Of a stretch of 28,950 nucleotides of DNA, positions 3-19,772 are shown piece by piece. Numbering within the stretch: position 1 is the stretch's first letter; the number at the start of each line of letters is the position of its first letter. The stretch is from Candidatus Hodarchaeota archaeon (GTDB taxonomy: Archaea; Asgardarchaeota; Heimdallarchaeia; Hodarchaeales; Hodarchaeaceae): positions 1 through 28,950 of the forward strand of contig JAEOTQ010000058.1 in the NCBI GenBank assembly GCA_016839785.1, written 5' to 3'. The notes beneath the pieces were generated by a model. It saw only the letters and a program-made list of their open reading frames with translations. It was not told where the DNA came from and did not search any database. The position numbers and the translations under genes were made by a program.

Positions 3-1010
3 AAGACAGAAAGAAGGGCTATTAAACAAATTGAAGGAGAAAAGGCTGTAGAGCTTCGAAAATTTGATTATCAAAATAGTCCTCCCAAAATGATGGCAAT
101 TGATGGTTCTAATAGGTGGATCTGGAATAATCCTGCCATTAATGCACGTATTGCAATAATTCGAACAGCTTATGTTACCTACGAGTTTAAAAAGGATTTA
201 ACGCCACCTATCCAAATTCTTAACCAAGATTCGCATGATGAAGCTGTTCTGATTGCCCCTGATAACCCCAAAATTCATACATATGACCAAGATATCCAAA
301 AATTGCATAGCGAAATTCAGAGAATAATAGGTCGAAAAAATCCCGTTAATGAGACTCTAGCCTTACTTCGCACCCTCGCAGAATTCAATATGGTAGCAGA
401 ATTAGCTAGCGAAAATCATAAATCTTTGATTGTAATGGATGGAGCTTTAACATATGTACAAATAAAGGAATTTGAAGATACTGTCAGAAACATTCTTAGA
501 GATTGTAAAAAAAATGCAAATATCTTAGTAGGAGTCTCAAAGAGAAATATTACCCGATGGTTGGGATCAGAGCTTACTGATGAGGCAGTTATGCGAGAAA
601 TGTCGAGAAATGATCAAAAAATGGTGTACATGGAAATTCCCATAATTCCTAAATCCCAACAGAAATTTCCATCGATTGGTATGACTTACTTAGCTAAATT
701 ACATGCACAACCAGTCAAAACATTTAGAGTAGATATCTATAACCCATCAAATGAGAATATCGATAAGATTATGTCCCACCTAGCGTACTATTCTCAGGTA
801 AATACATTCCCTGGTTATCCATTTCCCCTAGTTGATGCTCATACCATTGCAGCCTTATTAAGACGTGTTCCAGATATGTATAACCATGAATTAGTAGAAG
901 CTGGTATTCAACTTGGTTTTACAGAAGATGATTTACTTCAATATATGATCACACATGAAAATTTAGAGAAGGATCCATTTCATCGATATTTAGACGACAC
1001 AACGAGATAA
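3..1010 (+). CDS. nurA: NurA 5'-3' nuclease (DNA double-strand break repair), 5'-truncated by window edge
   Basis: Motifs AIDGS, MDGAL, GVSK and GYPFPLVDAH. The frame is open from position 3 (KTERRAIK...) to the tracked ATG at 90, so the true start lies upstream. Adjacent to herA. Confidence 0.9.
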   Translation, partial: KTERRAIKQIEGEKAVELRKFDYQNSPPKMMAIDGSNRWIWNNPAINARIAIIRTAYVTYEFKKDLTPPIQILNQDSHDEAVLIAPDNPKIHTYDQDIQKLHSEIQRIIGRKNPVNETLALLRTLAEFNMVAELASENHKSLIVMDGALTYVQIKEFEDTVRNILRDCKKNANILVGVSKRNITRWLGSELTDEAVMREMSRNDQKMVYMEIPIIPKSQQKFPSIGMTYLAKLHAQPVKTFRVDIYNPSNENIDKIMSHLAYYSQVNTFPGYPFPLVDAHTIAALLRRVPDMYNHELVEAGIQLGFTEDDLLQYMITHENLEKDPFHRYLDDTTR

Positions 1011-2657: not shown

Positions 2658-3881
2658 ATGGCAAAAATCATTATCGTGGGAGATGTTCACCTTGGAAAAC
2701 GGTATACATATCGTGTAAATTTAAAAACTGGCATGAGTGACCGTACTTTAGATTTCATTGACGCTCTTTCCAGAGTAGTCACTTATGCGATTGAAAATAA
2801 GGCGGATATCCTCATCATTGCAGGAGATCTGTTTGATCGTGTAAGTGTCGGTCCAACACTTCTCCGACTTGTCAGAGAAAATATTTGGTACCCTCTCATT
2901 GAAGCTAAAATACCAATTGTTTGTATTGGAGGGAACCATGATTCACCTCAGATACATGAGAAAGGATCCCCCTTGGGAGAGATTTCTCTCATTCCAAATA
3001 GTACTGTCTCCCGAACTCCGGCAACAATAAAAGTCCAAGCTTTAAATTCAAAGGAAGAAGTAGGATTCCTTCTTCTACCCTATCAAACGGCATCACAAGT
3101 AGTGAAATTTGTTGAAAAACGTCTTGGCAAACCTGTCGAGAAAGAAAGGCAAATGGTACTCAGCCAAGAGTACCTCAAATATTATATTGAGAATGAGATG
3201 AAACAGCTTACGACCAAATCAAAAATCATAGTTGGTCATTATTTCTTCCAAGGATCAAAAATCAACATCATACCATATCCAGATCTTCTCCCCCATGAAT
3301 TCAAATTTAAAAAAGATATGCTTCCCTTAGCACATATCGATCTTGCTGTATTCGGTCATGTTCACACCACTCAAACTTTACATGACGGTAAAGTATTAGT
3401 CCCTGGATCACTTGAACGAGTAGATTTTGGTGAGATAAATGAAGATAAGGGATTTTATGTCTTTGAGACAACGACACAAAAGTTAGAATTCATTTCAAAT
3501 AATCCACGTCCTCTTGTTAAACAGGTTGTTGAAGTACCCAAGGTGGAAGATCCAACTACTTACATCATAGAAAAATTCCCGCCCACAGCTAAGGATGCAA
3601 TTGTCCGTATAATAATTAAGATTTCTCCTGAATTGAAAAATAAGGTACGAATTCCCCGTATTCATCAAGCGTTAGAGTCTGCGTTCTATTTTGAGCTATT
3701 CTGGGATACATCTGTTACTCAACGAGATGTGGTACTCAAAGATTTTGTATTAGATCCATTAGTCTTATTTAATGATTTTATAACAAAGAAATTTAATCAA
3801 GATCCAAATTTGGTTCAATTACGAAAGACTGGGTTAGAAATTCTAGATCGTGCTCTGGCGCATGTGGAGGAGAAGTTATGA
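2658..3881 (+). CDS. mre11: Mre11/SbcD metallophosphoesterase nuclease
   Basis: Phosphoesterase motifs GDVHLG, AGDLFD, GGNHDS, VGH, FGHVH and PGSLERVDFGE. Start moved to ATG 2658 (MAKIIIVGD) because the longer ORF overlaps herA. Confidence 0.93.
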   Translation: MAKIIIVGDVHLGKRYTYRVNLKTGMSDRTLDFIDALSRVVTYAIENKADILIIAGDLFDRVSVGPTLLRLVRENIWYPLIEAKIPIVCIGGNHDSPQIHEKGSPLGEISLIPNSTVSRTPATIKVQALNSKEEVGFLLLPYQTASQVVKFVEKRLGKPVEKERQMVLSQEYLKYYIENEMKQLTTKSKIIVGHYFFQGSKINIIPYPDLLPHEFKFKKDMLPLAHIDLAVFGHVHTTQTLHDGKVLVPGSLERVDFGEINEDKGFYVFETTTQKLEFISNNPRPLVKQVVEVPKVEDPTTYIIEKFPPTAKDAIVRIIIKISPELKNKVRIPRIHQALESAFYFELFWDTSVTQRDVVLKDFVLDPLVLFNDFITKKFNQDPNLVQLRKTGLEILDRALAHVEEKL

Positions 3882-6256
3882 GTAGAACTTCTAGTACTTC
3901 TGGAGGAGGTAACTTCGATCTAAGAAGCCTTGAATTATATCGTTTTATGAATTATCAAGGAAAACCAGCGAAATTTTCCTTTAAAGCTCCCAATATTGTC
4001 ATCTCTGGACCAACGGGTTCAGGAAAAACGACGATTTTAGACGCTTTAACATTTGCTTTATTTGGTAGAAGTTCTCGACTTGATCTAACCATTGTAAAAA
4101 CGGAGGATGTTTGTGGAAATAATGGTAGAGTGACCTGTGAGTTTAAAACAGGTGTAAATTATTATAAAATCATTCGCGGAAGGGACAGCAAAGGTAAAAG
4201 CTTTTTAGAGCTATTCATTAATGATGAACGTATTAATGGTAAAATTCCAGATTTAAATGAGAAAATAAGGTCAACAATCCTAGGAATGAATTATGGTGCT
4301 TTTGTGAATTCAACTATCATTCGTCAAGATGAAATGAAATCCCTAGGATCAAAATCATCAATAGAACGATTGAAAACTTTACAAAACTTATTTAGATTGG
4401 ATATCTTTAATAAAGCAATTCAGGATGCACAGGAACAGCTAGTATTAATTACTGGTGTGAAAAATAAACTAGAGGGAGAATTACAAGAAAAAAAGAGGAT
4501 TTCTTCAACGAAGTTACAATTAGAAGAAACGCTTTCAAGAATAAAACCTAAGTTGAAGTCACTCAAAGCAGAGGAAGAAAAATTACAAGTTAATATTTCT
4601 AAAAATGAACAAGATATGGTTAAAAAGCAAGAGTTATATGATAAATTCCAAATTGCTTTAGAAAACTTGAAAAACTCTGAAAAACAGCTTTTAAAGGTAA
4701 CAGAAACGAAAAAAAACGCGGAAAACGAATTAAAGACATACAAAAAATTAAAAAACGATTACATTAATCTTGAAAAGCAAACTGAAACTATTAGGGATCA
4801 TGATGAAGAGATAAAATCTTTAGAGAGCAGAAAAAAGGAGTTTACTCTCATTCAAACAGGAATTGAAAGATTAATCAAACGACAAAAAAGAGATGAATCC
4901 CTACTCGTAAGAGACACTGAGAATAAAAGAAAACAAAAAGAAGAAACAGCTAAACGAATTTCCAATCTTACAACAGATATCGATCATCGGAAGGCTTTCC
5001 AAATCTTACAACAGGAGGGAAGATTAGGAGAACGAATTCAACGAATTTCTCTTGAAAAATCATGGAAATTACCAACCGAACTCATTAAAGGTATCGAGCA
5101 AGAGCAACAAACTGCAAGAGCTGATCTCCAAGAATTATTAATTGAAAAATCCAAGATAAATATCGATTCTTTTCGATTATCGGAAATTCAAGACAAAGAA
5201 AACCAATTGCTAGAGGAAATAGAAAGGTTAAATAAACGATTGATCGATCTAAAGAAATCTTGCGATGATGAAATCCTTGAACAGAAATCTAAATTAGAGT
5301 TAATTGAATTTACTTCTGAAGCTCAAAACCAGTTAGATACGTTAAAAAATTCTCAAAACACCAACGAACAGATTAAAAAAGAATATTCAAGAGCAAAGCA
5401 AAATCTAGAATCAATAATCGATCCTACAAGTAAAATAAATACGCTAGAGAGTCAAATTCAGACATTAAAAGAAGAAATAATCAGCCATAAGAAAGGACTT
5501 AAAGAATATCCTCCGTTTTTAAAAGAGTTTGAACGCTTAAAATCTGAAATAAACGAAAAAAAGGATAGAGCTGAAAAATTACAGATTCATTGTGTTCGTA
5601 TGGATCAAGATATGCAGAATCTGAAATCTAATATTTTAACTCTACAAAAATTAGAACCAGAAATAAAAGCTCTCGAAAAAAAGGTGAGCGAACATATTCA
5701 AGAAGAAAACATCCTGAATAAACTTAGAAATGAGGTGTTTCACATTAGAGGTGCTCCTTTCTATGCAATTAATAGAATTCTTCCTTACTTGGGACGGAGA
5801 GCTTCAATAATTTTATCAGATTTAACAAACCGACGGTTATCTAGTGTTCAATTAGAAAGAATTGATAAGGGAAAACAAGGGTTGGGATTTAAAATTAATA
5901 TTCAGACTCCTCAAGGTCCCCGTGATATTTCTACATTTTCTGGGGGTGAACGAACTCAAATTAATGCTGCTCTGAGACTTGCGATAAGTGAAGAGCTGTC
6001 CTCATTTGGTAGTGATACTAATCTCGATTCAGAAACAAAGAAAACTTTGTTCATCGATGAAGGAGATTTGGGATCTCTTGATACAATAGAAGCTCAACAA
6101 GCATTTGTTAAGAAGCTCTTTGAATTAACTAATAAATTCAAGATCATTTTAATAACCCACATCAATGAGATTGCAGACCAATTTCCACACTCGATCCAAA
6201 TAACACGTGATATTTCTGGACGTTCTATGAAAAGTACTGTGAGTGATACTCTGTGA
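3878..6256 (+). CDS. rad50: Rad50/SbcC SMC-like ABC ATPase (no zinc hook)
   Basis: Walker A GPTGSGKTT, Q-loop IRQDE, long coiled coil, signature FSGGE, Walker B/D-loop FIDEGDLGSLD, H-loop ITH. ATGA overlap with mre11. Confidence 0.92.
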   Translation: MSRTSSTSGGGNFDLRSLELYRFMNYQGKPAKFSFKAPNIVISGPTGSGKTTILDALTFALFGRSSRLDLTIVKTEDVCGNNGRVTCEFKTGVNYYKIIRGRDSKGKSFLELFINDERINGKIPDLNEKIRSTILGMNYGAFVNSTIIRQDEMKSLGSKSSIERLKTLQNLFRLDIFNKAIQDAQEQLVLITGVKNKLEGELQEKKRISSTKLQLEETLSRIKPKLKSLKAEEEKLQVNISKNEQDMVKKQELYDKFQIALENLKNSEKQLLKVTETKKNAENELKTYKKLKNDYINLEKQTETIRDHDEEIKSLESRKKEFTLIQTGIERLIKRQKRDESLLVRDTENKRKQKEETAKRISNLTTDIDHRKAFQILQQEGRLGERIQRISLEKSWKLPTELIKGIEQEQQTARADLQELLIEKSKINIDSFRLSEIQDKENQLLEEIERLNKRLIDLKKSCDDEILEQKSKLELIEFTSEAQNQLDTLKNSQNTNEQIKKEYSRAKQNLESIIDPTSKINTLESQIQTLKEEIISHKKGLKEYPPFLKEFERLKSEINEKKDRAEKLQIHCVRMDQDMQNLKSNILTLQKLEPEIKALEKKVSEHIQEENILNKLRNEVFHIRGAPFYAINRILPYLGRRASIILSDLTNRRLSSVQLERIDKGKQGLGFKINIQTPQGPRDISTFSGGERTQINAALRLAISEELSSFGSDTNLDSETKKTLFIDEGDLGSLDTIEAQQAFVKKLFELTNKFKIILITHINEIADQFPHSIQITRDISGRSMKSTVSDTL

Positions 6257-8520
6257 TTTCTAATTTCATTGAAAAGATCAAATCTAAATCATCAGATAAA
6301 GACCAGATAATATTTCAAAAAACAATACCTGCAAAAGAACCCAAGTTTGGATCTCTAACATTCCAATTGGCTCCAGAACTTGAGCAATGGTTAAAAGAGA
6401 ACGAATGGAACCTTTATTCACATCAAGCAGAGGCTCTAAATCTAATTAGTGAAGGGAAAAATGTGGTTGTCACTACAGCAACTGCATCAGGAAAAACATT
6501 GATTTTTTCTTTAGCGGTTGCTCAGGCAGTCACTCACAGAGTAAATACTACTGCACTTTTTTTATATCCTATGAAAGCTCTAGCTAATGATCAACTCTCC
6601 AAAATGGAAGAATTAAATACCGTGCTAGGGGGAAGATTAAGACCGTTTATTTATGATGGAGATACACCCTCTGAACGACGCCCAGCAATTCGTAACACTG
6701 CTAGAATCATTATTTCTAATCCATATGCTTTTCATCGTTATTTGGATTGGCATTCGAAATGGGAGCGATTTTTTCGGAACCTCCGTTTTATTATCATTGA
6801 TGAGGCCCATACCTATAGAGGAGTTTTTGGTTCAAATGTAGCACAGCTTATTCGTCGATTAAGACGGATCTGTGATTTCTATCGTTCAAATCCGCAATTT
6901 ATTCTCTCTTCGGCCACAATAAACAATCCAAAAGACTTCACAGAGAAACTAATAGGTACTCCAATTAATGTTGTCACGAATGATGGTTCAGAACAAGGTT
7001 CAAAAGAACTATTAATCTGGAATCCTCCCTATGTTGATCAATTTGAATTGGAACGTAGATCACCTCATCAAGAAACTCGAGATTTACTTTTCAGCCATTT
7101 AAAAGAGCACTATCAGACTCTTTGTTTTACACTTTCACGGAAAATGTCGGAAATCATTGCAGTCTGGGCACGTCAAGATCTCGAAGGACATGAACTAGAC
7201 CCTGAACAAATAATGGCTTATCGAGCAGGTTATCGGCCCTTGGAACGAAGGAGAATCGAGAATCAATTGAGAAATCGGGAGTTAGCTGCAGTTGTTAGTA
7301 CAAACGCTCTTGAAGTTGGAATTGATATTGGAAATCTTGACGCTGTGATTTTAAGTGGGTTCCCAGGAACCGTAATTTCTACTTGGCAGCAAATTGGCCG
7401 AGTTGGAAGAACCACTCGTCCTTCTCTTGCTACTCTTATTCTCTTTGAAGATGCTTATCAACAGTTCTTAGGTCGTCATCCCGAATATTTTCTAGATAAG
7501 ACACCAGAGAACGCTATAATTAATCTAGCAAATCCATACATAATAAAAGGTCATATCTTATGTGCAGCGGCAGAATTACCAATTAAAAAAGCCGAAATAA
7601 GTAAAATATGGGGAGATATTGGGTTGAAATCGGTCAAGGATCTGCTAAAACAAGATCTAGTTAAATTAATTCCCGCAGGTATAGTTCTAAAGTCAATAAA
7701 ACACCCTTCACAACAAGTCAGTTTAAATTCAGCTTTTTCAGATTCTATTGAAATTATAGTAAAAGGCAAGCTGTTAGAAACAATGACAACAGCTCAAGCA
7801 TATCGTGAAGCTCATGAAGGAGCCATTTTAATTCACCAAGGGGAGAAATATCTTGTAGAATCTATTGACTGGGAGAATAGGAAGGCATTTGCCTCTCTTC
7901 ATGATGTTGATTACTATACTGATGCAATTTCCACAAGTGAAGTTGAAATTCTCTCACAGGAGAGAGAAAAGGACCAAGGTTATCCTTTGGTATATGGGGA
8001 GGTTAAGGTAACAGAATACTATTTCTCATATAGAAAAAAGACCTATGATGAAGTTCTTGATATTTTACCACTTGATCTACCCCCATTGGAGTTTAAAACA
8101 AAAGCGGTGTGGATTCAAATACCATCTACCATAGTGGATTCAATAAAGGCTGAGAAAAAAGATCTTTCAGGAGGGATCCACGCATTAGAACACGCAACAA
8201 TTGCATTATCCCCTTTATTTGCTTTATGCGATCGTTGGGACATTGGAGGTACATCTTATCCGAATTATCCAGATGATGGAACCTCAAAGATTTTCATTTA
8301 TGATGGGTTTCCAGGGGGAATTGGAATTGCCGAGAAATTATTTGAAAAGTGGGATATCCTTTTATCAAATGTGTTACAATTAATACAGGAATGCCCATGT
8401 AAGGAGGGGTGTCCATCATGTATTCAATCACCTAAATGTGGTAATGATAATATTCCTTTAAGCAAAGAAGTGTCTTTACAACTTTTAAAGACATTAAAAT
8501 CGCTTTTAATGGAAACCTGA
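6253..8520 (+). CDS. SF2 DEAH helicase with C-terminal DUF1998 zinc-binding domain (Hrq1/MrfA/SftH family)
   Basis: Q motif LYSHQ, TATASGKT, YPMKALANDQ, DEAH, SAT, ALEVGIDIG, QQIGRVGR, C-terminal C...CPCKEGCPSC. GTG start overlaps the rad50 stop (GTGA). Confidence 0.93.
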   Translation: MISNFIEKIKSKSSDKDQIIFQKTIPAKEPKFGSLTFQLAPELEQWLKENEWNLYSHQAEALNLISEGKNVVVTTATASGKTLIFSLAVAQAVTHRVNTTALFLYPMKALANDQLSKMEELNTVLGGRLRPFIYDGDTPSERRPAIRNTARIIISNPYAFHRYLDWHSKWERFFRNLRFIIIDEAHTYRGVFGSNVAQLIRRLRRICDFYRSNPQFILSSATINNPKDFTEKLIGTPINVVTNDGSEQGSKELLIWNPPYVDQFELERRSPHQETRDLLFSHLKEHYQTLCFTLSRKMSEIIAVWARQDLEGHELDPEQIMAYRAGYRPLERRRIENQLRNRELAAVVSTNALEVGIDIGNLDAVILSGFPGTVISTWQQIGRVGRTTRPSLATLILFEDAYQQFLGRHPEYFLDKTPENAIINLANPYIIKGHILCAAAELPIKKAEISKIWGDIGLKSVKDLLKQDLVKLIPAGIVLKSIKHPSQQVSLNSAFSDSIEIIVKGKLLETMTTAQAYREAHEGAILIHQGEKYLVESIDWENRKAFASLHDVDYYTDAISTSEVEILSQEREKDQGYPLVYGEVKVTEYYFSYRKKTYDEVLDILPLDLPPLEFKTKAVWIQIPSTIVDSIKAEKKDLSGGIHALEHATIALSPLFALCDRWDIGGTSYPNYPDDGTSKIFIYDGFPGGIGIAEKLFEKWDILLSNVLQLIQECPCKEGCPSCIQSPKCGNDNIPLSKEVSLQLLKTLKSLLMET

Positions 8521-8546: not shown

Positions 8547-11500
8547 CTATTGTGGTTCAAAATCGATAGTTCTACCACAATTACTACAGAACTTCGCTTC
8601 CATGGGCATTGGGGATCCACACTGAATACAATATTTATATAATGGAACCTGCGGTTTTGCTGTGAATTCCTGTGATGGTTTAATACGATAAGAGAAGGGG
8701 TCATATCGTTTCCGTTCATTTCGACGAATAAGATAAATAATCCCAACGGTTACTCCTAGGGAAAAGACAACGATGAGAATTACAAGAGGCATATCGATTA
8801 AACTGGGATTTGAGATCTGAAAAAACACTGGTTCAAGTATCGAATTCCCTTGTGTGTCTCGAATAAAGAAAAGAAGAATAAAATATTCCCCCTTGATCTT
8901 TACTTCGAGATCTTCCTCATCTGGTAGTGGAATAGGGAGATCGGGAACGGTAAAAATACCTGAATGTATACTACTATCTGAAATAGAGGGGTAAAGAGTA
9001 AAGGTGTCAAAAACAACGCGATCAGCAGCAAAAAGATAGTAATGGAGAAGTTGGTAGTAGACTTCAAAGTCTTCTGAGTTTGAGTCTTCTAGTTTCAGGG
9101 AAATCTCGATTTCCTCAGAAGCTTTCCATTTGGGTAAATCTTGGAATGTTAATAACTCTTGATGATCTTCAACTGATAGATCGTCTATATAGCTTTGAGA
9201 TGCTAGGATTTCTGGTTCGTCATCAGGAATATAGAAAAATTCACGTACTGCGTTTAATAAAATAGCTTGATTTTGTTCATTCTTCCACCACACTTGAACT
9301 TCATACGAGTAATATCCTGTGTGTAGGTTATTTGGTATCAGCCAACTTGCTGATTTAGACTCCAATGTATCATTAGCAAGGGAAATTTCACTTGTGTAAC
9401 TAGTAGTATATATTTTGGAATCCAAGGGTGGAATTAAAACGTCAAGGGAATCCTCATACTGACTAGATATGATTAGATTGGCTGAAACATTTAATGAGCT
9501 GGTATGTGTCACTGTTACTTCTAATCCTTCATCTATAAGGAGACCTGACTCCTCCCACCAAGAGGGTACCGATATGTTTGAAGATGACAAAGTCACAACT
9601 TCAATTTCCTCAATAAGGGGAACTTGAGTAGTAGGGAGGAGAAGACTTAGATTAATATTCAATTCTCCAGGAATGGTTCCAGCCAGACCTAGTCTCATAT
9701 TAGTTCCTTCAACACCTTCTATAGAGAAATTAAGATAAGAAAAACCAAGTGTGTTATTATACGGAATAGCAATATCATGGATTATGGACCCATTAGCAAA
9801 TTCAATTGTGAGAAAAAAATTCTGAAAAGACGAGGGATAAAGTGCAATCTCCAGTGCATTAGAATTCGTATCTAGATGAGCATTGAATGTAACCTGAGGA
9901 GGAGACAACCAATCCAAAATATTGGAAACGAAAATCTGCCCAGACGTGCTTCGTAGGTAGGAGGGAGAAATCCATTCTTCACTACCGAGAATTAGTATTT
10001 TTCCTTTACCATCTGGTTCCAAACCAGCTAAAACAAGTTGTGTGTCTAATTGAGCGTAATGTGAAAGTGAAGCATCAGAAATATTCCCGTAAAAAGCCGT
10101 TCCTCCTAGTCTTGGAAGATCATCGACTCCAGTAAAGAATGGATTTTCATTATTTTTTATTAAATCGGTCATTGTCCGATATTTTGAGACTGGGAATCGT
10201 TCTCGGCCATCATCAACGTAATTAACTAGTTCAGTCCTATCAGAGAGATTAATAGGTAAATTTAACCCATCTACTAATTTTTCGTATGGATCAAGATTGA
10301 AGTACGGAAGAAATGATGTCACCAGAAGAATAGATCCATTTTTTTCATGAAAATCTATAATAAATTCAATCTCTCGATATGTTAAGGGATCTTCAAGGTC
10401 TGTCAGGACTAATATTCCATTTTGTGAAAGATTTGCATCAAAAATTGGAGAATTATAATCTACTATATCATATTGATAACTCGAACTTTGTAGTATCTGA
10501 TTCAAAGAATGGTAATTTAAGAAGTATGAATCATCAATCCCTGTATGGTAAGTGTCCCAGTAAATTTTCTCCTTTGGTAATTGTACCTCGAAAGTAATCG
10601 GCAATTGATAGCTTTGAATTCCAAAGGTATAACTGAGATACCCCTCATAGGAGGCCAGGGGAACATTATAAGGAATATCGAGTTTAAGTATTCTTTCAAA
10701 ATATGCTGCGGAAGAGAAAGTGGCTGGAGTAGTATTGAAATCAATGAAGGGAATTAAATCCTCACTTATCTCCCAAGAGATTGTTCCACCTGTGCCAGTT
10801 ACAAATGGAATACTAATTTCCACATGATCACCTGGAAAGGAAATAGGTTGAAAAAACTCGATTCCATCCTCATACGCCCTTGGAATCGAAGAAATTATTT
10901 CATATCCAGAGCTGATTTGCGAATTCCTTAGTTTTTCTGCTGCTGAACCTACATTTATAAGGCCACTTCCTTGGGTGTATATCGTTTCACCATCACCTAA
11001 ATCTGAAGCGGATTCTTGTAAGGCTGCACGAATAGCGTAAGGTGATGCATCAGGAAATTGATCCAATAGTAATGCTACGGCTCCACTTACAACTGGAGTT
11101 GCCATCGATGTACCTGACAATATAATATAATCCGAAATAGAAACGTCAACGAGTGCGTTGTATGCTAAGTCCATCACACCCCCTGATGCAAGTGGACCAA
11201 CAATTTGGTATCCAGGAGCAATAATGTCAGGATCAGGTCGGAAATCATAAGTCGGTCCTTGGCTTGAAAAATATACTACATTGTTGCTCCCATTTGACGC
11301 GCCTACTGTTAATGATTTTTTTGCGGAAGCAGGTGTATTAATCGTCATGAAAGGAATGGAACCATCAGCTTCATTCCCTGCGGCTGTTACAACTGTAATT
11401 CCATGATCAACAACAGTATTTACTGCTTGTGCAAGAATATCCTCGGACTCCCATGGAGAAGTAAGACCAAATCCCAGTGAAATTGAAACCACATTAACAT

Positions 11501-12263
11501 TTTGTTCCACAGCTTCATCTAAGGCCGCAATAACGGCCGAACTGGAAGAACTCCCAAACATATCAGCTACCTTGAGATTTACTACTTCGGAGCCCGGAGC
11601 AATTCCGGGGAAAGAACCTCCACCTGCGGCAATACCAGCAACATGAGTCCCATGACCGTGAAGATCATATATCCCCTCTTCAGAAGAATATCCATATTCT
11701 GGTAATATAAATGACTCTTGATAACCGATGTTAGCAAAAGCAGAGTGGCTATCATCTAATCCTGAATCAAGCACAGCAATTTTCACACCACTACCATCAT
11801 ATCCTGCACTTGTTAATGGTAAACTATTAATGATATCCCTTGGTAATACATAATTTTGCTGCCCAACTTGAATCTTCTTCAGTGTTAACTCTTCTACAGA
11901 GGGTAAGACATTTTTAAGTTTAGAGGCTTGTAAATAGGGAGTAATTTTCCCGAAATCTTTTTTCAATACAGTAAGCTCGGTTTCTGTTAGGGAAATCATA
12001 CCGACCAGTACATTTTCAAAAAATCTTGGAACTCCATACCCATTCTGGTCAAAAAGCTTCTCGAAATAATCTTTCTCTCCTTTCTGATACGAAAATAAGT
12101 ATGGTGTACGACTTTTAACACTTGAAGGAATGCCTATCGAGTGATTCTCTAAATTTTCAGGTTTTTCATCGTCTAATGTAACTAGTAGATTCGGAAATGA
12201 TATTAAGAAAATTAGAAGTACGTTACTTGTAAAAAAAATGATTTTCTGACTTAATATATTCAA
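8547..12263 (-). CDS. Membrane-anchored S8 subtilase, site-1-protease-like architecture, with C-terminal TM helix and zinc ribbon
   Basis: N-terminal hydrophobic signal; catalytic VLDSG, HGHGTHVAG, AAGNE and SGTSMATP; TM LVILIVVFSLGVTVGIIYLI followed by RR; CIQC...CSNC zinc ribbon. TTG start preceded by GAGG. Confidence 0.92.
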   Translation of the reverse strand: MNILSQKIIFFTSNVLLIFLISFPNLLVTLDDEKPENLENHSIGIPSSVKSRTPYLFSYQKGEKDYFEKLFDQNGYGVPRFFENVLVGMISLTETELTVLKKDFGKITPYLQASKLKNVLPSVEELTLKKIQVGQQNYVLPRDIINSLPLTSAGYDGSGVKIAVLDSGLDDSHSAFANIGYQESFILPEYGYSSEEGIYDLHGHGTHVAGIAAGGGSFPGIAPGSEVVNLKVADMFGSSSSSAVIAALDEAVEQNVNVVSISLGFGLTSPWESEDILAQAVNTVVDHGITVVTAAGNEADGSIPFMTINTPASAKKSLTVGASNGSNNVVYFSSQGPTYDFRPDPDIIAPGYQIVGPLASGGVMDLAYNALVDVSISDYIILSGTSMATPVVSGAVALLLDQFPDASPYAIRAALQESASDLGDGETIYTQGSGLINVGSAAEKLRNSQISSGYEIISSIPRAYEDGIEFFQPISFPGDHVEISIPFVTGTGGTISWEISEDLIPFIDFNTTPATFSSAAYFERILKLDIPYNVPLASYEGYLSYTFGIQSYQLPITFEVQLPKEKIYWDTYHTGIDDSYFLNYHSLNQILQSSSYQYDIVDYNSPIFDANLSQNGILVLTDLEDPLTYREIEFIIDFHEKNGSILLVTSFLPYFNLDPYEKLVDGLNLPINLSDRTELVNYVDDGRERFPVSKYRTMTDLIKNNENPFFTGVDDLPRLGGTAFYGNISDASLSHYAQLDTQLVLAGLEPDGKGKILILGSEEWISPSYLRSTSGQIFVSNILDWLSPPQVTFNAHLDTNSNALEIALYPSSFQNFFLTIEFANGSIIHDIAIPYNNTLGFSYLNFSIEGVEGTNMRLGLAGTIPGELNINLSLLLPTTQVPLIEEIEVVTLSSSNISVPSWWEESGLLIDEGLEVTVTHTSSLNVSANLIISSQYEDSLDVLIPPLDSKIYTTSYTSEISLANDTLESKSASWLIPNNLHTGYYSYEVQVWWKNEQNQAILLNAVREFFYIPDDEPEILASQSYIDDLSVEDHQELLTFQDLPKWKASEEIEISLKLEDSNSEDFEVYYQLLHYYLFAADRVVFDTFTLYPSISDSSIHSGIFTVPDLPIPLPDEEDLEVKIKGEYFILLFFIRDTQGNSILEPVFFQISNPSLIDMPLVILIVVFSLGVTVGIIYLIRRNERKRYDPFSYRIKPSQEFTAKPQVPLYKYCIQCGSPMPMEAKFCSNCGRTIDFEPQ

Positions 12264-17456: not shown

Positions 17457-19772
17457 GTGGCTGAAATATTTGATGCTATTATACTTGGGAAAGTAAATCC
17501 ATTCAGGTCGACAAGTATTGGAGATCCATGGCAATCGGATGTAATTGATGTACCTGAGTACAATGGTAAAGCGACTCGTATTGTACTAGAAACTTTAGAT
17601 GAAGTACGCTCCACAGGCCGATCTGGTATGTGCATGATTCTAGGGGATGCTGGAGTAGGTAAAACGCATGTTCTTGCACGCTTACGCCGTATTGCTGAGG
17701 AAAATAAATACTTATTTGTAAGTGTACGACCTCTGGGGGATTTAACTAGAATATACGGTCATATTCTTCAAGAACTGATGATATCTCTAAGAAAAAAGGA
17801 TCCAGAGGATGAATTTAGTCCTTTGGAACGCTTTATTGGCGATGTTATTTCTCGTGCATTAAGTGATGGTCTACCAGACAATCCTTCTGCACAACATTTA
17901 GCTGCCAGTTTCGACCAAGATCCAATGAAAATCTTTACCTATAAACCCGAACGATTCTATTCCTCAAACTTGAGGAAAATGGCAATTAATTATCTGGCTT
18001 CTTCCGCTCCAGATATCGATATCCAATTTTTGGAAGTTCTATTTCATGTTCTGAACCCTACCATGCGATCAACGGCCTTTAAATGGTTATCTGGGATCGA
18101 AGTCTCTCAAAAAGATTTGAATAGGTTGGAAGTCCCTCATTCTATTAGCTCCGAGAATCGGGCACTATCTATTATCCAAACAATAGCATCACTTGCCCAA
18201 AAACCCATTTTACTGTCATTTGACCAATTGGAGTCGATATATATACGTTTTAAGCGTGATAGTGGCATTCAGCTCCTATTCGATTCATTAACAAACCTGT
18301 ACAATCAATGTCGACATCTTCTTGTTCTTGCTATGTGCCAATCCCTTGTTTGGAATGAATCCATTACCAAAGAAGTTCCAGAATATGCACGTCAGCGGAT
18401 CGATTACATTACACGGTTAGAACGGTTATCACACAAAAATGCTGTTGCTTTAGTTAAAGCACGGTTTGATACCATGTTCTTAGATTCGGGAATAATTCCT
18501 CCGTATGCTACCTACCCGTTTAAAGATGATTATATTGCTAAGATTGCGGATAAAACTGATGGCAATCCACGATTATTCCTTCGGCACTTAAGGGATCGAT
18601 TAAACGAGTTTAAAGATCAGGGACAAATTCGAGAATTATCTACGATAGATGTTATGGACTCTGAAACTCAGAAAGAAGCTGTCGCTGGAGTACCCCCTAT
18701 GACTCCAGATGAAGTTGTATCGACGGTTTCTTCATCCTTATCGAAAGATAGTGCTGATGCTTTGCTATTTCTGTCAGAAGAAGAAAAAGAAGCTCTGGCA
18801 GAGCTGATTCCTGATCCAAAAAGGATATTAGTTGAACCTGCTCCTATAGCTGCAAGAGCTGAAAACGCATTAAGTGCTTTAGATGATATAGCCTCATCAA
18901 AACCTTCTTCATCCCCACCATCGGAAATAATATCCTTTCTGGAATCAAAATGGGCAAAATATGCACAAGAATTTGAAATGGAAATTTTTGCTTTTCCTCA
19001 CCCAGTCAGGAGAGATTTCTGTAAGGGAGTCCTATATGAAATCTTAAACTCAGCTATTGAAAAAAGACGCCCCATCTATGGTGTCAACGTACTTAATGTT
19101 CGTATTGACCGAAATCTGGTTGAGAAAGATACAAAAGGATTAGATCTTGTATTTACGTATCAAACTCCTCGTGGTCCTACATCTGTGGGAATTGAAATCA
19201 ACAATAGCGAACATGGGTCAACTGTATTTCAGAGTCTTCGTCGATTGAAGAAGTTAGTGAAAGGAAATATTCGTTATGCATTTATTCTTAGAGATGAAGA
19301 ATTATCGCTTCAAAGAACAGCTACCAAATCTCTAGATTTAGCTGAATCTCTTACCGACTATGGTGGATTGTACTACATTGATTTTCTTTCAAATCAAGCA
19401 TTGCTTGCCACAAAGAAGCTGCTAGATCTGGCTTCTGCAGGTGATCTGGTCCTGGGGTCACAGACGGTAAGTAGAAATCAAGCCTTATCCTTTATCTTCG
19501 AGGAAATTCTGGGTAGGATTACCATTTTCCAAACAGTATTTGCTCATTTGCAATCTTCTCAAGAACCTAGTAGCCGTAGAACAGGTTATACCTCCGAATC
19601 ATCCGAAGCCGTTGAAGCTATTGTCACTATTCTGAAATTCAACCCCGCTATGACAACTGATCGCTTATGTATGTTACTAAATCGTAACGAAAGAGATTTA
19701 GTACCCATCCTGAAAATGTTAGCAATTCGAGGGTTGATTTCATTTGACGGCAAGAATATAACCTTGCTATAG
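17457..19772 (+). CDS. AAA+/STAND-like P-loop ATPase with PD-(D/E)XK-like domain and C-terminal winged helix
   Basis: Walker A GDAGVGKT, Walker B LLSFDQLE, sensor GNPRLFL, low-complexity linker, D...EIN strand pair, C-terminal wHTH pattern. The GTG start is uncertain. Confidence 0.8.
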   Translation: MAEIFDAIILGKVNPFRSTSIGDPWQSDVIDVPEYNGKATRIVLETLDEVRSTGRSGMCMILGDAGVGKTHVLARLRRIAEENKYLFVSVRPLGDLTRIYGHILQELMISLRKKDPEDEFSPLERFIGDVISRALSDGLPDNPSAQHLAASFDQDPMKIFTYKPERFYSSNLRKMAINYLASSAPDIDIQFLEVLFHVLNPTMRSTAFKWLSGIEVSQKDLNRLEVPHSISSENRALSIIQTIASLAQKPILLSFDQLESIYIRFKRDSGIQLLFDSLTNLYNQCRHLLVLAMCQSLVWNESITKEVPEYARQRIDYITRLERLSHKNAVALVKARFDTMFLDSGIIPPYATYPFKDDYIAKIADKTDGNPRLFLRHLRDRLNEFKDQGQIRELSTIDVMDSETQKEAVAGVPPMTPDEVVSTVSSSLSKDSADALLFLSEEEKEALAELIPDPKRILVEPAPIAARAENALSALDDIASSKPSSSPPSEIISFLESKWAKYAQEFEMEIFAFPHPVRRDFCKGVLYEILNSAIEKRRPIYGVNVLNVRIDRNLVEKDTKGLDLVFTYQTPRGPTSVGIEINNSEHGSTVFQSLRRLKKLVKGNIRYAFILRDEELSLQRTATKSLDLAESLTDYGGLYYIDFLSNQALLATKKLLDLASAGDLVLGSQTVSRNQALSFIFEEILGRITIFQTVFAHLQSSQEPSSRRTGYTSESSEAVEAIVTILKFNPAMTTDRLCMLLNRNERDLVPILKMLAIRGLISFDGKNITLL

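Follow-up and report, generated by a model that had tools for sequence, protein, structure and literature searches.

Can a Rad50-type ATPase that works with Mre11 do without the CxxC zinc hook that normally ends its coiled coil and, if so, what occupies the hook's place? The question is raised by a 28,950-nucleotide stretch of DNA from a Candidatus Hodarchaeota archaeon (order Hodarchaeales, Asgardarchaeota; contig JAEOTQ010000058.1 of assembly GCA_016839785.1; hereafter the window, meaning the whole of this stretch), which carries a gene for a 792-residue Rad50-like protein, here called P0001. The way in which the distal junction helps Mre11-Rad50 to work is a matter of continuing debate, and the Hodarchaeales are currently placed nearest to eukaryotes. 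In a 2020 review, the Rad50 hook is termed 'absolutely conserved' (PMC7752040). On the evidence set out below, P0001 is probably a Rad50-type ATPase that partners Mre11 and is encoded in an end-resection operon of Hodarchaeales (Asgard), NurA-HerA-Mre11-Rad50(-MrfA helicase), with an apex that replaces the hook and clasps two arms together.

Is the protein a Rad50 at all? Its ATP-binding cassette (ABC) head is complete: GPTGSGKT at 44-51, Q150, the signature S688-GGE, D727-E728, D735 and H761 are each invariant or at least 90% conserved in alignment A1, which holds 66 full-length family members that are 96% to 26% identical to P0001. Among Pfam models, SMC_N is matched at 44.1 bits (cut-off 40), and AAA_23 and AAA_29 are also above their cut-offs. 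An AlphaFold2 model built on A1 (mean predicted local distance difference test score, pLDDT, 79.1; predicted template modelling score 0.50) contains a long antiparallel coiled coil formed by helices 176-362 and 430-620, with arms of 187 and 191 residues and the apex at the exact midpoint; such a coil is likewise predicted for P0134, a relative 31% identical to P0001 that was modelled on alignment A2. When the entire 792-residue P0001 model was compared with the PDB using Foldseek, the top matches were the C. thermophilum Rad50 chains 7zr1_D and 7zr1_C (E 2.2e-19), and E. coli SbcC (7yzp) and M. jannaschii Rad50 (3auy/5dny) also scored high, amid Smc5/6 and condensin chains. The curated NCBIfam models place the protein at some distance from the known families, however, all scores being far under the cut-offs: 115.4 bits against 478.5 for TIGR00618, 91.1 against 700 for NF003034, and 60-85 bits against 847-1087 for the remaining Rad50 equivalogs. 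Because it has no zinc hook and falls under every NCBIfam Rad50/SbcC cut-off, P0001 is better called a Rad50-type ATPase of a distinct hookless clade than a canonical Rad50.

The only cysteines of P0001 are residues 79, 87, 462 and 572, and CxxC occurs nowhere, just as an earlier note on this DNA, made from the sequence alone, had stated in describing a 792-residue protein with four isolated cysteines. Neither does Pfam PF04423, the Rad50 zinc hook, give a match at E <= 0.01. In an ordinary protein the lack of a CxxC would be uninformative; it is noteworthy here because this is the Rad50 family. Relatives were collected by a word-indexed search, in which 8000 candidates were scored and 151 proteins reached E <= 0.001 (at least 120 of these being taken), and by running HMMER exhaustively over 1.84 billion cluster representatives, which gave 70 proteins at E <= 1e-30. 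Counting proteins of at least 600 residues among the matches listed, the closest relatives lack any CxxC (0/53 for P0005-P0060 and 0/36 for P0125-P0183, hence 0/89), and a CxxC at 40-60% of the length is found in 111 of the 125 distant ones (54/55 for P0061-P0124 and 57/70 for P0184-P0266). The hookless length and apex recur in dozens of independent assemblies, in full-length proteins spanning 96% to 26% identity. Absence of the hook is a property of the whole protein family.

What, then, stands at the arm tips? Residues 363-437 are far better conserved than the coiled coil on either side: weighted conservation averages 2.43 bits per column, compared with 1.55 and 1.59 for the arms, while the two halves of the ATPase head reach 2.9-3.0. 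Seven apex columns are invariant across the 66 sequences (L377, G381, R389, I390, E393, W396 and F432), and a further set reaches at least 90% (L364, A373, F374, E380, L383, E385, R386, E409, I427, D430 and E436); no column of conserved cysteine or histidine is found in the apex in the weighted A1 alignment. The signature AFxxLxx[EQD]Gxxx[EA]xxxR[IL] lies at mid-length in 86 of the 266 collected proteins. The region is hydrophilic, the highest 19-residue Kyte-Doolittle mean between 355 and 445 being 0.0, with 12 K+R and 13 D+E among the 75 residues. The P0001 model resolves it, with pLDDT 78-89 for the apex blocks, as helix 305-362, loop 363-369, helix 370-394, turn 395-399, helix 400-424, loop 425-429 and helix 430-476. 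The P0134 model (apex pLDDT 86-92) has helices 316-373, 381-407, 412-437 and 441-486, and a helix-turn-helix between two kinks is common to both. We conclude that a conserved, cysteine-free helical module of about 75 residues has very probably replaced the CxxC zinc hook. An 81-residue apex fragment compared with PDB chain sequences gave nothing meaningful (best E 0.72), and residues 335-465 yielded no lead in the ESM Atlas, where scores of 0.90-0.91 came with few shared features and unnamed clusters.

These results also bear on how the region is best described. The interval 4950-5180, singled out in the earlier note, corresponds to residues 358-435 and is the apex region, and W396 (nucleotide 5063, within SLEKSWKLPTELIK, which starts at residue 391) does sit at the exact midpoint, being the sole tryptophan of P0001. 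The adjoining DIDHRKAFQILQQEGRLGERI, described there as a non-heptad segment flanking the break in the coil, is instead predicted as the seven-residue loop 363-369 followed by the regular helix 370-394, with no disordered break; and helix 374-393, taken for an irregular flank, turns out to be the main predicted interface (see below). Conservation of the W-x-L-P turn had further been proposed as a check, and in the alignment W396 is invariant while the rest of the turn is unconserved, the commonest residue at P399 being arginine at a weighted frequency of only 0.27.

A second, conserved discontinuity is seen halfway along both arms, where the helices of the AlphaFold2 model are interrupted, at window positions 4739-4789 and 5408-5431 (residues 288-304 and 511-518). 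The pLDDT there is about 50-59, the descending side carries D-P-T-S with D515 conserved in at least 90% of the 66 sequences, and matching breaks occur in the P0134 model. This discontinuity may be an elbow or joint.

To what use might such a module be put? The dimer prediction that had been proposed as a check was made with two copies of residues 335-465 (131 residues, heads and Mre11 left out) on alignment A1, in three runs with three controls. It passes the tool's mark, with scores of 0.63, 0.64 and 0.62 against 0.00 for the best of the controls; the runs share at least 55% of contacts, and the pLDDT of the partner is at least 69. Of proteins with solved structures, 20 of 30 homodimers and 1 of 23 single chains attain this mark, counts that are rough for the present case, which uses its own alignment. 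The confident part of the predicted interface (374, 377-386, 389, 393, 396, 398 and 402) is the invariant face of helix 370-394, and the pairs of lowest predicted error join identical residues (377:377, 381:381, 385:385, 389:389 and 393:393). Same-residue pairs imply that the helices pair in parallel and in register, and such pairing in turn would have two arms running alongside each other, which is how PMC7752040 describes the rod form of hooked Rad50. Judged from this model, parallel self-association of helix 370-394 seems a somewhat better than even prospect. As regards the earlier proposal of a zinc-independent element of dimerisation at the apex, the missing hook, the conserved element free of cysteine and histidine, and the two-copy score of 0.63 bear it out in part, dimerisation and metal independence being predictions only.

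We propose that the apex module would take over from the hook and need no zinc. Two Rad50 molecules would meet through helix 370-394, the helix of one packing parallel and in register on that of the other along a stripe made up of F374, L377, G381, E385/R386, R389, E393 and W396. In such a clasp the two helices would approach closely at G381, hydrophobic caps would form at either end (F374/L377 and W396/L398/L402), and Glu/Arg salt bridges would lie between them, so that two Rad50 arms would be held side by side in an arrangement resembling the rod form of the hooked protein. We infer from the modelling that the apex would pair the two arms without metal. Since like-charged glutamates oppose each other over the axis of the predicted clasp, a bridging cation may be present there. 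If this is right, Rad50-like proteins would add to the zinc hook and the SMC hinge a third, metal-free junction of the SMC-type arm tip, consisting of a parallel in-register helix clasp with a glycine contact, an invariant Glu/Arg ladder (E380, G381, E385, R386, R389 and E393) and a tryptophan cap; to this larger claim we give appreciable, if less than even, credence.

Several points weigh against self-association of the apex. First, the two-copy score is the model's own confidence, and hence a prediction only, and such models readily lay coiled-coil fragments side by side. Second, the predicted E385:E385 and E393:E393 contacts would be repulsive unless bridged by arginines or a cation, and the charges that are invariant on the surface might just as well be there for a different partner or for DNA. 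Third, single-chain Mre11::Rad50 fusions of the Loki type keep AFxxLxxxGxLxER and are without the tryptophan, so W396 would be inessential to the function of the core. Finally, searches with P0001 and AAA_23 found no second Rad50 in the organism's genome, which otherwise holds one 1208-residue SMC-like open reading frame (ORF; contig C130) and small ABC ATPases, and PF04423 found nothing there above its cut-off (best E 0.157, for an unrelated 189-residue cysteine-rich ORF); the assembly is 84.5% complete, however, and another genome of the genus, G190, carries both types, so a second, hooked Rad50 may be present.

Might the conserved residues instead serve a single chain? The apex could be a rigid fold-back cap, its conserved positions steadying an intramolecular hairpin and its kinks, with the chains joined only at the heads and the Mre11 dimer and the arm tips free. 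In the monomer models the hairpin is already well packed at good confidence, and many conserved apex residues are hydrophobic (F374, L377, L383, I390, W396, I427 and F432) and could make up an intramolecular core; yet the invariant or nearly invariant E380, E385, R386, R389 and E393, together with G381, share one helical face, which is the interface in the two-copy model. Dimer prediction of helical fragments is indeed prone to false positives, but head-like conservation (2.43 bits, as against 1.55 in the arm) is rarely needed for a mere cap, and loss of the apex junction in hooked Rad50 is reported in PMC7752040 to cause phenotypes similar to those of null mutants. A simple cap therefore appears unlikely, and pairing of two arms through helix 370-394 remains the reading we prefer.

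The genomic setting provides a further line of evidence. In the window, five plus-strand genes are tightly packed, coding for NurA, HerA, Mre11, the Rad50-like protein and an MrfA/Hrq1-type helicase. Retention of the Mre11 partner, as the earlier note had claimed, is borne out by the adjoining gene directly upstream, the stop of which overlaps the Rad50 start in an ATGA; the Rad50 stop overlaps the GTG start of the helicase gene in a GTGA, so that these two genes are translationally coupled. The Mre11 protein (P0002) scores 86.4 bits with TIGR00619 sbcd, above the cut-off of 77.65. Its ORF is open from the ATG at 2517, but the phosphoesterase match begins only at residue 50, and because of this the likely start is M48 (nucleotide 2658). 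NCBIfam HerA families match the HerA product at E 1.5e-18 to 4.5e-14, every one below its cut-off. The helicase has the MrfA Zn-binding domain MZB (E 2e-23) and scores 722.7 bits with TIGR03817, below the cut-off of 874.1.

How widely is this arrangement found? The source names of close relatives are those of Hodarchaeales, Heimdallarchaeota, Hermodarchaeota, Thorarchaeota and Promethearchaeota metagenome-assembled genomes (MAGs). A scan of named genome records, from which the best 80 of 130 confirmed loci were taken, all in MAGs or single-amplified genomes, broadens this range: 28 are labelled Thermoplasmata/Methanomassiliicoccales and kin, 24 Asgard, 14 'Methanobacteriota', six Methanocellales/Methanocellaceae, two Euryarchaeota and two 'uncultured archaeon', with single loci labelled Bathyarchaeota, Hydrothermarchaeota, Halobacteriota and Aminicenantes (a MAG). 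Among the ORFs of at least 700 residues at these loci, none has a mid-length CxxC (0/67; the motif turns up once elsewhere, at position 51 of a stop-to-stop frame), and 62 of the 67 carry the apex signature, the exceptions being one from Methanocellales (V for A) and four Loki-type fusions. A gene for Mre11, HerA, NurA or MrfA adjoins the hookless gene at 78 of the 80 loci. Three gene orders recur: NurA-HerA-Mre11-Rad50-MrfA in the Hodarchaeales/Heimdall type, Mre11-Rad50-NurA-HerA in the Thermoplasmata/Methanocellales type, and NurA-HerA-Mre11::Rad50 in the Loki type.

Two further observations concern these loci. An MrfA/Hrq1-type gene directly follows Rad50 in all 18 loci of the Hodarchaeales/Heimdall type (L066-L083) and is absent from the Thermoplasmata, Methanocellales and Loki-type loci. 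The Aminicenantes label belongs to locus L089 (WVZL01000043.1), where a hookless Mre11-Rad50-NurA-HerA set lies on a 6-kb contig of a MAG named Candidatus Aminicenantes bacterium; either the contig was mis-binned or the set has been transferred to bacteria.

Gene order bears on a second alternative, in which the apex is a docking site for HerA-NurA, for the MrfA-type helicase that is co-transcribed in Hodarchaeales, or for DNA. The genes of the operon are tightly coupled, but the apex is kept under the order Mre11-Rad50-NurA-HerA, without MrfA, in Thermoplasmata and Methanocellales; because it is conserved where the MrfA gene is absent, MrfA is not its general partner. Possible DNA contacts of hook regions are discussed in PMC7752040, and the apex surface is both conserved and charged (12 K+R and 13 D+E per 75 residues), though its near-neutral net charge is atypical of a DNA-binding patch. 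We regard a docking role as rather less likely still than a cap, and again favour a contact between two apices.

To place the hookless proteins relative to hooked Rad50, a maximum likelihood tree was calculated from 349 head-domain columns, without apex and arms (LG+G4, quick search, presumed SMC outgroup). Its rows were sampled from the hit lists, and the quick search and long outgroup branch limit the trust to be placed in branch support and deeper order. With that proviso, P0001, 26 apex-type proteins, four Mre11::Rad50 fusions and 11 of 13 shorter hookless proteins fall into one clade of 42 rows (SH-aLRT 100), and ten hooked Rad50 proteins of Heimdallarchaeia form a separate clade (SH-aLRT 97); two hookless proteins, P0060 and P0176, lie outside the hookless clade. 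The hooked proteins of other Heimdallarchaeia families were surveyed through the 30 best loci found with NF003034. Twenty-five have an ORF of at least 400 residues with a Walker A motif, and a CxxC, typically CPxC, is present in 22 of these and lies at 35-65% of the ORF in 21; the three ORFs without a CxxC are truncated. Hooked Rad50 of related Heimdallarchaeia is about 930-970 residues long.

Two groups within the hookless clade differ from P0001 in build. The Mre11::Rad50 fusions, single chains of about 1190-1210 residues in Promethearchaeota-labelled MAGs, follow NurA-HerA, and most keep AFxxLxxxGxLxER without the tryptophan (loci L098, L099, L101, L108, L130 and L141; proteins P0058, P0143, P0146 and P0147). 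The shorter hookless proteins, of about 703-731 residues (P0059, P0148, P0152, P0153, P0163 and P0165-P0170), have a different apex (GGISIDEYTEIA...). Many genomes of another Heimdallarchaeia family contain ORFs of that length, and a closed genome has two of them about 5 kb apart (G026:C1:401821-408061).

Within the phylum, the 81-residue apex fragment was found in 21 of 400 genomes, namely 19 of the 22 of the same genus and two others. The full-length profile matched 77 of 201 genomes at E <= 1e-20, mostly through the head only, and these matches include further distant full-length members. Hooked Rad50 was found in two of the 22 genomes of the genus, G190 (full, adjoining its own Mre11) and G217 (cut by the contig end), and not in the organism's own genome (G000). 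As the hookless type is usually the sole Rad50 there, and sister lineages and 2/22 members of the genus are hooked, the distribution points to a hookless gene having replaced an ancestral hooked gene in Hodarchaeales.

The genome with both types deserves separate mention. In G190 (L065, G190:C13:12000-24000), the hookless operon is accompanied at 4288-8378 by a canonical pair, Mre11 of 413 residues and Rad50 of 953 residues with CPLC at 491. G190 is possibly a snapshot of coexistence before replacement.

Such a pattern could also be read differently, namely that the cassette is an accessory, mobile or defence-type module, not one for housekeeping repair, and that its odd apex reflects a different job. 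The clade does branch apart from the hooked Rad50 of other Heimdallarchaeia, its distribution over distant archaeal phyla is patchy, and its Mre11 partner scores above the cut-off of an SbcD model of bacterial type. The hookless protein is, however, the only Rad50 found in the organism's own genome and in 17 of the 19 genomes of the genus that carry this type, and the neighbouring genes in the window are ordinary ones (S8 peptidase, RIO kinase, CinA, aminotransferases and GHMP kinase). Nor did PADLOC yield a convincing defence-family match for Rad50 or Mre11, or anything for NurA: Rad50 gave weak matches in its head domain only (best LmuB, 42.7 bits, residues 12-208), HerA matched HerA models at the family level (best 87.7 bits), and for the helicase the matches were to generic models of defence helicases. 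We hold an accessory role to be improbable; it concerns the role of the operon, and is compatible with dimerisation of the apex. A deletion in assembly or gene calling, lastly, can be dismissed, because the hook is missing, and the apex present, across the family in many independent assemblies (0/89 close homologs with CxxC), with the apex at the exact midpoint.

How does the module compare with known junctions? Canonical Rad50/SbcC proteins (P. furiosus, M. jannaschii, C. thermophilum, human; E. coli SbcC) share with P0001 the bipartite ABC head, the long antiparallel coil and the adjoining Mre11/SbcD gene, and for the thermophilic archaea also NurA-HerA in the operon; they differ in having a CxxC hook where P0001, at 792 residues, has its 75-residue cysteine-free helical module. 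The established role of the hook is to dimerise Rad50 arms at their distal ends. From high-speed atomic force microscopy and a swap, Tatebe et al. 2020 (PMC6969161) concluded that it acts as a constitutive dimerisation module and can be exchanged with the hinge of MukB, an SMC protein. A different apex dimeriser is functionally plausible because that hinge can replace the hook. As in the chimera, an unrelated dimeriser would supply the hook's role, and P0001 would be a natural case; the chimera is engineered and its hinge is globular, of about 150 residues, whereas the P0001 element is natural, small and an all-helical hairpin. No SMC hinge family is among the Pfam matches of P0001. The closest working analogue in print, by description, would be RecN, the dimer interface of which lies in three apical helices (PMC4255302). 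RecN is nevertheless unrelated in architecture and partners: as there described, its coiled coil is short and it works without a partner nuclease, whereas P0001 has arms of 187/191 residues and an Mre11 gene, and no RecN family is among its 17 NCBIfam matches at E <= 0.01.

Natural relatives that depart from the canonical plan are also known. SbcE (YhaN) of B. subtilis is an SbcC-like protein that 'lacks the CxxC motif', but its own central domain is described as hydrophobic and insoluble on expression (both in PMC2811018), while the P0001 apex is hydrophilic. An SbcE-type or membrane-hairpin apex was accordingly rejected, with a maximal mean hydropathy of 0.0 and 25 charged residues per 75. 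The archaeal SMC-superfamily coiled-coil proteins ClsN and Sph1/2, which the earlier note had named as a possible hookless family, are poor candidates, since according to PMC9389158 most carry a zinc hook, unlike hookless P0001, and they are not partners of Mre11; the archaea-specific SMC-related model NF045487 gives P0001 32.5 bits against a cut-off of 300. No characterised hookless family with the P0001 apex was found, and a natural archaeal Rad50 without a hook was nowhere described in the literature covered by a full-text search, most subscription journals lying outside its reach.

Coordinates of the operon and of the P0001 elements are collected in Table 1. Two other genes of the window may be recorded here. 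On the minus strand, 8547-12263 codes for a 1238-residue subtilase (Peptidase_S8, E 4.1e-53) with a zinc-ribbon domain at its end, and 17457-19772 on the plus strand codes for a 771-residue protein with N-terminal AAA_16/AAA_22 matches only, which looks like a STAND-type ATPase.

Table 1. Operon genes and elements of the Rad50-like protein, in window coordinates
Feature	Position	Strand	Evidence and remarks
NurA nuclease gene	90..1010	+	Pfam NurA PF09376, E 1.6e-11; frame open from nt 3, first ATG 90
HerA helicase/translocase gene, 528 aa	1037..2623	+	Pfam DUF87 'Helicase HerA, central domain', E 5e-19
Mre11/SbcD-type nuclease gene	2658..3881	+	Pfam Metallophos, E 3.6e-14; NCBIfam TIGR00619 sbcd
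Rad50-like ATPase without zinc hook (P0001), 792 aa	3878..6256	+	ORF, Pfam, NCBIfam, Foldseek
Walker A, G44-PTGSGK-T51	4007..4030	+	G44, T46, G47, G49 and K50 invariant in 66 sequences
Ascending coiled-coil arm, residues 176-362	4403..4963	+	AlphaFold2 H176-287, H291-298, H305-362; break 288-304
Apex module, residues 363-437, at zinc-hook position of relatives	4964..5188	+	Conservation, invariant columns
Apex helix 1, residues 370-394, AFxxLxxEGxLxERIxRIxxE	4985..5059	+	AlphaFold2; predicted self-association face
Apex turn SWKLP, residues 395-399, invariant W396 at protein midpoint	5060..5074	+	
Apex helix 2, residues 400-424, hairpin return strand	5075..5149	+	H400-424; E409 nearly invariant
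Second kink/block K-I-N-x-D-S-F-x-L-S-E-I, residues 426-437	5153..5188	+	Loop 425-429, then H430-476; into descending arm
Descending coiled-coil arm, residues 438-620	5189..5737	+	AlphaFold2; break at conserved DPTS (511-518); D515 nearly invariant
ABC signature, S688-G-G-E691	5939..5950	+	Invariant in 66 sequences
Walker B and D-loop, T723-LFIDEGDLGSL-D735	6044..6082	+	T723 and L724 invariant; F725 to D735 nearly so
MrfA/Hrq1-type DEAH helicase gene	6253..8520	+	Pfam DEAD, Helicase_C, WHD_HRQ1, MZB

The hookless clade is thus a widespread, conserved and unannotated variant of a known machine, the key mechanism of which is predicted; its members carry only the labels 'AAA family ATPase' or 'exonuclease SbcC'. 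It amounts to a natural experiment, in that the clade has kept Mre11, NurA and HerA while a different, equally conserved element has taken the place of the hook, and it could show which property of the junction counts: dimerisation, rod geometry, reversibility or metal dependence. The apex would be a small, soluble and testable module for this purpose. If the predicted clasp is real, it would be held by salt bridges or a carboxylate-bridged cation and not by a tetrahedral zinc site, and for this reason it could conceivably open and close under regulation, unlike the hook. It would then be the sole Rad50 junction in most Hodarchaeum-type Asgard genomes and in many Thermoplasmata and Methanocellales.

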